A stretch of 64,000 nucleotides of DNA, from NCBI RefSeq assembly GCF_054482525.1, contig NZ_CM137006.1. The stretch is one strand, 5' to 3'. Made by a program: the position numbers. The number at the start of each line of letters is the position of its first letter. The first letter of the stretch is position 1. Of the stretch, positions 27,001-30,000 are shown in pieces.

Positions 27001-30000
27001 TATCTCTTCGATGAGCGAGTTATTAAAGAATATGGCGCTCAACGGATACGGCATTGCCTGGTTACCGATCTGGTCGATCGTCGATGAACTACAGACCAAA
27101 CGTCTGATATGCCTTGATGCTGCTAAATTGACAGTCCCCATTCAGGCTTATATTTACCGAATGAACACCCGACTGAATAGAACCGCCGAGAACCTCTGGC
27201 GTATTTTACAGGAACATATGCCAGACGATTTAATCCAGCAGATATCAATGGAAGAGCCAGCACGCCGCAATTGACGACGTGCAATAAATATCCTCCGGCA
27301 TAGCCGGAGGTTTTTCAAATGCGCCTATAAGGCTCTCTTACCAGCCGCGCCCTAACAGGCGCACACGATCTGACATTTGCATCCAACTTCGTTACTTACG
27401 GTCCGTAAACGGGCTGCCCGGACAGGGAATCGATAACTGCTCTCCCATTTTATCCTCTTCAAGCTGGTGCTTTATGTAATCCTGTATCTTCGCCGTGTTC
27501 TTACCCACTGTATCGACGTAGTCCCCCCTGCACCAGAACTCCCTGTTCCTGTATTTGAATTTCAAATCACCAAACTGCTCGTAAAGCATCAGACTGCTTT
27601 TCCCTTTCAGATATCCCATAAACCCGGATACGCTCATTTTGGGCGGGATCTCCACAAGCATATGGATATGATCTGCACAGCATTCAGCTTCCAGAATCCG
27701 TACGCTTTTCCACTCACACAGCTTTCTCAAAATACTGCCTGTTGCTCTACGCTTCTCTCTGTAGAACACCTGTCTTCGGTATTTTGGCGCAAAAAACTAT
27801 GTGATATTTACAGTTCCATCGGGTGTGCGCTAAGCTCTTTTCGTTCCCCATTGGGACCCCCTTTTGATTTCTTGTTTGACACTTGCAGTTGCCAGACCGC
27901 AAGGTGTTTTAACAAATCAAAAGGGGTTTTAATAACTGGCTCAAAGCTGAAAGCTTTCCGGAACCCCCAGCCTAGCTGGGAGTTTTCTGTGCACAAAAAA
28001 ACCCTGTAAAAAACTTACAGGGGTATAAGGCTTAGCCTAACTTGCGTCTGTTGCATGGTGCCGGGTGCCTCCCGGTGAATTCAGTCGGTGTCACTGAACC
28101 CGCGTAGGCTTCGCTCATAACATAATAAATGCTATGTACACCAGTCGCCCCACCGCACAGGGGGATTCACCACACGGCGCACTTTTTAACAAATATCCCT
28201 CCGGCCAGACAATAATAAACATAATGAATTGTGATCTTCTTAACAGTTTTAAAGTGTTACAGATAACATGCCAAGTAATTGCTTGTTTTTTCATCAATAG
28301 GAAGACCACACCAACAACCCCAGCTATCAGCCAGAACCGACATTATCCGGCTGATAAAATCTACCATCACTCCAACACCAATCACCGCCTGTGCCAGATC
28401 GCGTTTCTCAAACTTTTTAATCTCTGTTGCCACTCTGCGGGTTTTCTTTTTGAATTTTGAAAATACCAAATATCGTGACGTTTCTTTGGGGGATGAGCTA
28501 TCAAGCGGGAACGATCTGCCTACAGAGAAAGTCAGCCAGACCACTCTGCAAATTATCCCCGAAAGGCTCTGTGGCTGATATGCGCCGGGCATGGCGCAAT
28601 GGGCCAGTGGCAGTGTGTGATGGTGGCCCTTACTGGATTTGAACCAGCGACCAAGCGATTATGAGTCCTCTTACCACTGAGCTAAAGGGTTGGAGAACGC
28701 AATATCACCTGTCTTATATGATTACACCCAGAATTTCCCGGACTGTCTTGTCAAAACATTCAGTCTCCAATTCCCACCAATAGCAAGACGGTCACTATGA
28801 CAGCATCTCCGGAATGAGCTCAGGGCACGGGGGTTTACCGAGGTTACTTTTCCAACGAAGTTTCTCAAACGCAGGCGTGATAACATTCAAACTTAGGATC
28901 TCAGTTGCTATCTTTTCCCATGTCTTACGGATTAATGTCATCGGTTGCATACAAATCGCTACAAGCTGCATCAAGGCACATGCTTCATATGTACAGTACA
29001 CCAAGATGGATAGGTGTTTCACCTAATCCTAGCTCATTTCAGGCAGGCTCAACAGGCTGCAGCCCGCATGTTTAAGGGCGCAGGTTATCAGCAGGTTATA
29101 AGCTGACCGGATACATTCCGGCAAAGAAAAACCTTGCAGCGATGAAAGCCGTTTCGGTAATGCAATGACGATAAAGCTGTCCTGTATATATGTGCTTCGC
29201 CTCAAACGCTTGCCGTTTTGGTATTGTGCACATGCCGTCTGAACGATGTGGAGCCAGAAAAATGGATGCGTTATGTCATTGAGCATATCTAGGACTGGCC
29301 GGCAAACCGGGTACACGATCTGTTGCTCTAAATAGTTGAGCTGGCCTCTCAGTAAATATCAATACGGTTTTGGTGAGCCGCTTACCACTGAAGCATCACT
29401 TCGGCAGGTAGATTTCTGCAGGCAGAATGGCGCTTACCTTAGCGATAAGCGCGTAAATGTGGTTATTCAATACCTGTGGTGACTGTAAAAGTGCGCGTTT
29501 GCTGCGGTGCAACCTGAATCAGCGTGCCATTACGTTGCGCGGCAAGATACCCCTCAGGTCGACAGGTTGCTGGTAATGCAAAGGCGGCTACCTGTTGCTC
29601 GCCGTTATAAAGGATCCAGCGTGTCACATAATTTAGTTCAGCACTGGAGAAACGAGTAACAAACGTAGTGCCATCGGGAGCGATCATGCGAAACTCTGGC
29701 TGATCTGTGTAAGCGTCCAGTTTGTCTGCAAAGAAGACTATTTCTGGATCATAAAATTCCGGTTGATTCAGCGTCGACAGAGAGGCTTCTCCCTGCATAA
29801 TCCGTTGATTAAACGCCAGCCACTGGGCGGTGGGATTAACATGCGAAGGTACTGATTCACGCAACCTTAATATTTCGTCCGGTATATTCTGGCTGAACGT
29901 AGCATTTGGTATATATGCATAATTCATGTGGCACATATATTGTAGTGGCATATCTACAGAAGCCAGATTGGTTACGGCCATCTTAATATCGAACAATGTA

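Follow-up and report, generated by a model that had tools for sequence, protein, structure and literature searches.

A degenerate tRNA-Ile2(CAU) gene, very probably phage borne, in a scrap of a lambdoid late region within an Escherichia coli island

We analyzed a stretch of 64,000 nucleotides from contig NZ_CM137006.1 (the window) and focused on a tRNA-like sequence on its minus strand. This sequence is very probably a non-functional, phage-borne tRNA-Ile2(CAU) gene of the ileZ type, lying within a scrap of lambdoid DNA. Cryptic prophage remnants are known to contain decayed phage tRNA genes, and the relic described here is a previously unremarked example.

An earlier note on this DNA had reported a tRNA-like sequence with a CAU anticodon at positions 28621 to 28689. 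Such a sequence is present, and its lower end was placed correctly, since 28621 is the last A of the CCA end. The upper end given in the note corresponds to tRNA position 3, and position 1 lies at 28691. Read from 28691 to 28621, the sequence is AACCCTTTAGCTCAGTGGTAAGAGGACTCATAATCGCTTGGTCGCTGGTTCAAATCCAGTAAGGGCCACCA. The Rfam tRNA model (RF00005) matched it from end to end with 30.7 bits, which narrowly passes the gathering score of 29. The corresponding E-value was 0.02 when the whole window was searched and 1.6e-4 for a region of 500 nt. With the same model, the intact phage ileZ scored 72.5 bits and the ileY gene of K-12 73.8 bits. ARAGORN made no tRNA call anywhere in the 64-kb window, and in the genomes inspected the identical allele carries no tRNA annotation from PGAP. 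The homology is nonetheless far above chance, as blast aligned 69 to 74 nt with annotated tRNA-Ile genes at 88 to 89% identity (E of about 1e-23).

The structure retains some features of a tRNA and has lost others. The anticodon loop, CUCAUAA, is identical to the loop of the ileX, ileY, and ileZ types and, together with the homology to these genes, places the sequence in the tRNA-Ile2 class. In the Rfam alignment, the T arm, the discriminator A, and the ACCA end are intact, in agreement with what the earlier note had said of the T arm and the CCA end. The same alignment contains a 5-position gap, corresponding to a 5-nt deletion that takes out the 5′ strand of the anticodon stem. The anticodon stem is therefore destroyed, and its description as unpaired was correct. 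The acceptor stem had also been called unpaired, which holds for positions 1 and 2 only: A1 and A2 face C72 and C71 (GG to AA relative to intact tRNA-Ile2), while five of the seven pairs remain. In addition, three of the four D-stem pairs are kept, with one mismatch, and the T stem carries a C-to-T substitution. The four stems of a canonical cloverleaf thus cannot all form. The minimum free energy (MFE) of the relic was −17.4 kcal/mol (z = −0.67 against shuffled sequences), and the MFE structure was not a cloverleaf. The intact comparators folded to −33.5 (phage ileZ) and −34.1 kcal/mol (K-12 ileY), with z of about −4. As neither a confident functional call nor a canonical cloverleaf was obtained for the allele of the window, the description of this sequence as degenerate stands.

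TilS, which forms lysidine at C34, reads the anticodon stem-loop and the acceptor pairs C4-G69 and C5-G68; charging is by IleRS. By sequence, the relic retains both of these pairs, and its anticodon stem is absent. An RNA made from the relic, if one is produced, would be unable to act as a tRNA.

We compared the tRNA body with its intact relatives in alignments made by hand and with MAFFT. An 86-nt region matched annotated tRNA-Ile genes at 84 to 89% identity in essentially every E. coli genome. For the ileZ-type tRNAs carried by lambdoid phages, Stx phages among them, the identity was 88.6%. The chromosomal genes ileX and ileY, whose CAU anticodon is lysidine modified, are 89% identical to the relic over the tRNA body. 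They have in common with it the acceptor pairs 3-70 to 7-66 and the TT in the variable region; however, their T loop is different, their flanks are unrelated, and the anticodon stem is unable to form in the relic. The phage ileZ, on the other hand, has the same anticodon loop and the same CAAAT T loop. Counting substitutions, the relic differs at five positions from K-12 ileY and at six from the ileZ of a Stx2a phage, with the 5-nt deletion in addition in both comparisons. Taken by itself, the tRNA body would thus not separate a chromosomal from a phage origin, and the flanks carry the case.

In lambdoid phages, an ileZ-type gene is the first of a tRNA cluster located downstream of the antiterminator gene Q, for example in Stx2a_F723 (AP012533.1). 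The cluster is named ileZ-argN-argO here, following the GenBank annotation; it was reportedly first described in phage 933W by Plunkett et al. in 1999. In intact lambdoid phages, it supplies tRNAs for rare codons of the late genes (AUA for Ile; AGA and AGG for Arg). A search of one literature library for ileZ, argN, and argO returned nothing relevant. In phage Evi, the order is complete and confined to one strand, with Q followed by tRNA(CAT), two further tRNAs, tciA, tciB, STnc100, and the lysis gene S. As listed in Table 1, the sequences on both sides of the relic are colinear with this Q-to-lysis region, which indicates a phage origin of the relic.

Table 1. Features in and around the tRNA relic (coordinates of the window)
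Feature	Coordinates	Strand	Evidence
P2-family replication endonuclease gene (gpA), fragment	28809..29065	minus	77-78% identity
Leader homologous to sequence 5′ of ileZ (downstream of Q) in a Stx2a phage	28699..28790	minus	blastn and alignment
Pseudo-tRNA-Ile2 (anticodon CAU), ileZ/ileY type	28621..28691	minus	Rfam tRNA score; 88-89% identity to tRNA-Ile genes
ileZ-argN spacer (7 nt, TCACACA) and 15-nt stub of second tRNA	28599..28620	minus	Match at fixed register; blast alignment reaches 28599
tciA upstream region and first ~87 nt of tciA (TerB-family phage moron gene)	28380..28598	minus	78-81% identity
Decayed tciB (DUF3927) and downstream sequence	28206..28370	minus	67% match; weak Pfam match; PGAP
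STnc100 prophage sRNA homologue, full length	27991..28205	minus	Rfam RF02076, 136.4 bits
IS200 copy, tnpA on minus strand	27283..27995 (about)	minus	STnc490 hit; PGAP; comparison with AHB30

Upstream of the relic, blastn aligned the leader with positions 1372 to 1464 of our Stx2a phage extract (L003) at 69.9% identity (E = 6e-6). This homology, 70% over 93 nt, is weak; the leader of a diverged allele in strain AHB30, described below, is 76% identical to the phage sequence upstream of ileZ. Immediately 3′ of the CCA, the window reads TCACACA CTGCCACTGGCCCAT and the Stx2a phage TCACATA CCGCCATTAGCTCAT. In the phage, these 22 nt are the spacer between ileZ and argN (7 nt) followed by the beginning of argN (15 nt). 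With the register kept fixed, the two sequences are identical at 17 of the 22 positions (binomial p = 4e-7); for the 3′ flank of K-12 ileY, the count is 5 of 22. Farther downstream, the tciA segment matches phages Evi, PPyecE_EH1910, and JLK-2012. It follows the tRNA stub directly, and about 190 nt are lost relative to Evi and JLK-2012, comprising most of the second tRNA, all of the third, and 44 nt beyond. A second deletion of about 390 nt removes most of tciA and fuses its 5′ end to tciB, creating a chimeric open reading frame at 28257 to 28592. The chimeric frame gave a weak match to the Pfam family DUF3927, which the intact TciB of Evi matches strongly, and PGAP annotates a partial DUF3927 gene at the tciB remnant. 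At the nucleotide level, positions 28370 to 28053 of the window match positions 3107 to 3422 of JLK-2012 at 67%.

The STnc100 homologue ends in a terminator at 28022 to 28002. STnc100 occupies the corresponding position, downstream of the tRNA cluster, in four lambdoid phage loci. A 2026 preprint describes STnc100 as an sRNA encoded by prophages and uses it to mark phage origin (bioRxiv 10.64898/2026.05.13.724894). The allele of AHB30 has two STnc100 copies 1.2 kb apart (positions 6602 to 6818 and 7779 to 7965 of our extract L011), whereas the window has one; judging by the arrangement, this difference suggests a deletion by recombination between the two copies.

The leader, the spacer, the beginning of a second tRNA, the moron genes, and STnc100 thus all lie around the relic in the order found in phages. 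Conversely, Q, stx, and the holin and endolysin genes are absent from the locus, and tRNAs 2 and 3 are deleted. The scrap is therefore a relic of a lambdoid late-region tRNA cluster rather than an intact member of this group. It is also short, and we count the missing Q and lysis genes against a lambdoid origin of the relic.

Sequences of other origins adjoin the scrap on both sides. The IS200 element follows directly after the STnc100 terminator and ends the phage scrap on that side. Its boundaries were set by comparison with AHB30; Rfam detected STnc490, the IS200 5′ RNA, at 27861 to 27984, and PGAP annotates an IS200/IS605 tnpA. The relic had been described as lying next to the IS200 copy, which is nearby but roughly 630 nt away. 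On the other side, the lambdoid homology ends at about 28790, where the gpA fragment abuts. This fragment matches the gpA of P2-like Klebsiella and Escherichia phages (E = 2e-53); it carries stop codons, and the match was made at the DNA level. Next to it, at about 29228 to 29385, lies a C-terminal remnant of an IS66-family transposase. Fragments of two or more unrelated phages and several insertion sequences are crowded here into about 2 kb.

The flanks also bear on the possibility that the relic is a decayed duplicate of chromosomal ileX or ileY without a phage origin. By one substitution, the tRNA body resembles ileY slightly more than ileZ, and the variable-region TT is of the ileY type. 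However, the CAAAT T loop is of the ileZ type; the 3′ flank agrees with the phage spacer and the start of argN and not with the flank of ileY; and the leader, tciA, tciB, and STnc100 are all lambdoid. We consider a chromosomal duplicate highly unlikely. The suggestion in the earlier note that the sequence is a decayed tRNA paralogue, including the comparison with ileX/ileY-type genes that it had proposed, is borne out by the alignments, and the colinear phage flanks sharpen it to a phage-borne gene of the ileZ type.

The relic is not confined to the window. The region from 28200 to 29400 is 100% identical in many E. coli chromosomes. A 212-nt block comprising the leader, the pseudo-tRNA, and the stub was found in 320 of 5,426 complete E. 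coli genomes, at 334 places and nearly always with at least 99% identity. The hosts of the relic are different mosaics bounded by insertion sequences: in the O104:H4 strain HUSEC2011 it lies beside the ter island and in NCTC86 beside iro genes, while in strain 2014C-3050 its surroundings are those of the window.

Strain AHB30 (NZ_OZ547086.1; positions 6120 to 6191 of extract L011) harbors a diverged allele that is 94.8% identical over the 212-nt query. Aligned over 276 columns, the alleles of AHB30 and the window have a mean column identity of 97%. Position 2 is a G in the AHB30 allele, and its deletion, located at the same site as that of the window, comprises 4 nt rather than 5. The deletion therefore predates the split of the two alleles. 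The AHB30 allele scored 41.1 bits with RF00005, was called tRNA-Met(cat) by ARAGORN, and is annotated as tRNA-Ile in RefSeq by PGAP; this annotation is probably a false positive. The two alleles differ at 3 of 71 positions within the tRNA, compared to about 4% of positions in the flanks. This similar divergence inside and outside the tRNA fits neutral decay. All three differences lie in the 5′ half, and the 3′ 46 nt, from the anticodon loop to the CCA, are identical. With about two differences expected in this segment, the observation of none is not significant, and it leaves room for some constraint.

This identity of the 3′ segment could also be read as the mark of a functional non-canonical tRNA or tRNA-like RNA, such as a minihelix, a processing element, or a decoy. 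The intact T arm, discriminator A, and CCA, the five remaining acceptor pairs, the higher score of the AHB30 allele and the tRNA calls made for it, and an apparently intact STnc100 located 416 nt downstream on the same strand all point in this direction. On the other side, the anticodon stem cannot form, the folding energy is no better than that of shuffled sequences, the 3′ identity between the alleles is not significant, and the neighboring genes are plainly broken. A promoter scan found no σ70-like promoter upstream on the minus strand, which is weak evidence either way. We therefore give a functional RNA very little credence. One form of it is equally improbable in our judgment: the retained T arm, acceptor minihelix, and CCA might serve as an RNase P/RNase E processing signal or a stabilizing signal for a transcript running into STnc100, or as a decoy for a tRNA-binding enzyme. 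If such a reading were true, the relic would not be pure debris.

The window itself is colinear with an island located between dgcT and serX in E. coli strain elppa5. In the strain from which the window derives, the island borders clpA/clpS, on the serW side, with its integrase end (59400 to 64000). Judging from these two arrangements, either the island family uses both of the identical tRNA-Ser genes, or an inversion may have occurred between them. The relic lies about 31 kb inside this serW/serX island. By colinearity with elppa5, a tyrosine recombinase gene is located just inside the island at about 58.2 to 59.4 kb, which is about 30 kb from the relic. Beside it, we found att remnants consisting of 14 and 16 nt of the 3′ end of tRNA-Ser (serW/serX), at 59547 to 59560 and 59725 to 59740; they begin a 54-nt direct repeat (59547 to 59600 and 59727 to 59780, with a spacing of 180). 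The window contains no complete tRNA-Ser gene. The K-12 sequences ptwF and pawZ are further att remnants of tRNA 3′ ends at island borders. Like the relic, the serW/serX remnants are non-functional, derived from a tRNA, and situated in horizontally acquired DNA. They are, however, short 3′-terminal pieces, repeated, and placed beside an integrase at the island edge, whereas the relic is of full length, unrepeated, and deep within the island.

Several other features of the island were recorded. At 59783 to 59870, beside clpA, a pair of type I-F CRISPR repeats, spaced 60 nt apart, encloses a single spacer, and one repeat is matched by Rfam CRISPR-DR4. The pair appears to be the minimal clpA-infA CRISPR remnant of E. 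coli. At about 13400 to 22000 (located through positions 5175 to 13796 of our elppa5 extract, L001), a darT-darG toxin-antitoxin pair is situated within a type I restriction-modification operon. The gene order is hsdM, hsdS, darT, darG, and hsdR, followed by an M48 peptidase gene, and hsdS is frameshifted in elppa5. Compared to elppa5, the window has an insertion of about 1.3 kb at 47682 to 48993. It contains an ALIL frameshift pseudoknot at 48018 to 48134 and is therefore an IS3-family element. Conversely, an IS66 insertion of elppa5 (positions 25955 to 28463 of L001) is absent from the window.

The other possibility raised in the earlier note, that the relic is the footprint of a tRNA-targeted integration, is not supported. 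Under this reading, an element would have integrated into ileX or ileY and left a partial tRNA copy at its junction. The relic does lie in an island full of mobile-element debris, its deletion immediately precedes the anticodon loop, a region in which many integrases that target tRNA genes cross over, and one IMG/VR contig (L012) displays a 3′-half copy of tRNA-Ile2 of the kind this reading supposes. Nevertheless, the relic spans position 1 to the CCA and is not a 3′ fragment alone. Both of its halves and both of its flanks match the lambdoid tRNA-cluster region, and with phage matches on both flanks there is no junction in or beside it. A direct-repeat partner was sought and the idea was dropped, as the window contains the 3′ 25-mer only once, even when up to three mismatches are allowed. 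The integrase and island boundary, which the note had proposed to look for near the relic in related genomes, lie about 30 kb away, where the integrase has tRNA-Ser att remnants of its own. We also considered and rejected a P2 integration junction at the adjoining gpA fragment: in P2, gpA is not adjacent to attP, and lambdoid homology is found on both sides of the tRNA. An att remnant is thus scarcely credible.

We searched several collections for an intact ancestor. The phage collection contained no full-length match closer than 88.6%. Across the phage records, IMG/VR, and the genomes of 100,044 species representatives, we found no intact tRNA whose 3′ half is identical to that of the relic. 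A scan of IMG/VR with the 35-nt segment from the anticodon to the T arm returned three contigs, none of the relic lineage: one carries a host-type ileX, and the other two carry unrelated partial copies, uncalled by ARAGORN, one of which we read as a 3′ half. Among the 100,044 species representatives, a gap-tolerant pattern for the full tRNA, with a variable gap at the deletion, had no match and thus revealed no intact ancestor; the 47-nt 3′ half had no exact match and thus no copy in other species. The collections searched therefore yielded no candidate for the direct ancestor or donor phage.

These results lead us to the following model for the phage-borne relic. The source would be the ileZ-type first gene of a tRNA cluster between Q and the lysis genes of a lambdoid phage. 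A late-region “moron” piece of about 750 bp, with the order leader, ileZ, second tRNA, third tRNA, tciA, tciB, and STnc100, would have become trapped in a mosaic E. coli island, rich in insertion sequences, that integrates at serW/serX. Decay of the tRNA would have involved the 5-nt deletion of the 5′ anticodon-stem strand and three substitutions at helix positions, two in the acceptor stem and one in the T stem. The surroundings would have been eroded by the deletion of about 190 nt that removed tRNAs 2 and 3 and left the 15-nt stub, and by that of about 390 nt that fused tciA with tciB. The homology, the colinearity, the structural defects, and the distribution are direct observations; the order of the decay events and the inability of an RNA from the relic to act as a tRNA are inferred. 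The scrap is now bounded by IS200 on one side and by the P2 gpA fragment on the other.

The relic accounts for an unannotated tRNA-like hit in about 6% of complete E. coli genomes. Its practical value is a caveat on borderline tRNA calls, as exemplified by the slightly less decayed AHB30 allele with its annotation as a genuine tRNA-Ile. In addition, the relic is a convenient marker of a lambdoid late-region scrap that rides in several island mosaics of the serW/serX type, including those of O104:H4 and NCTC86.
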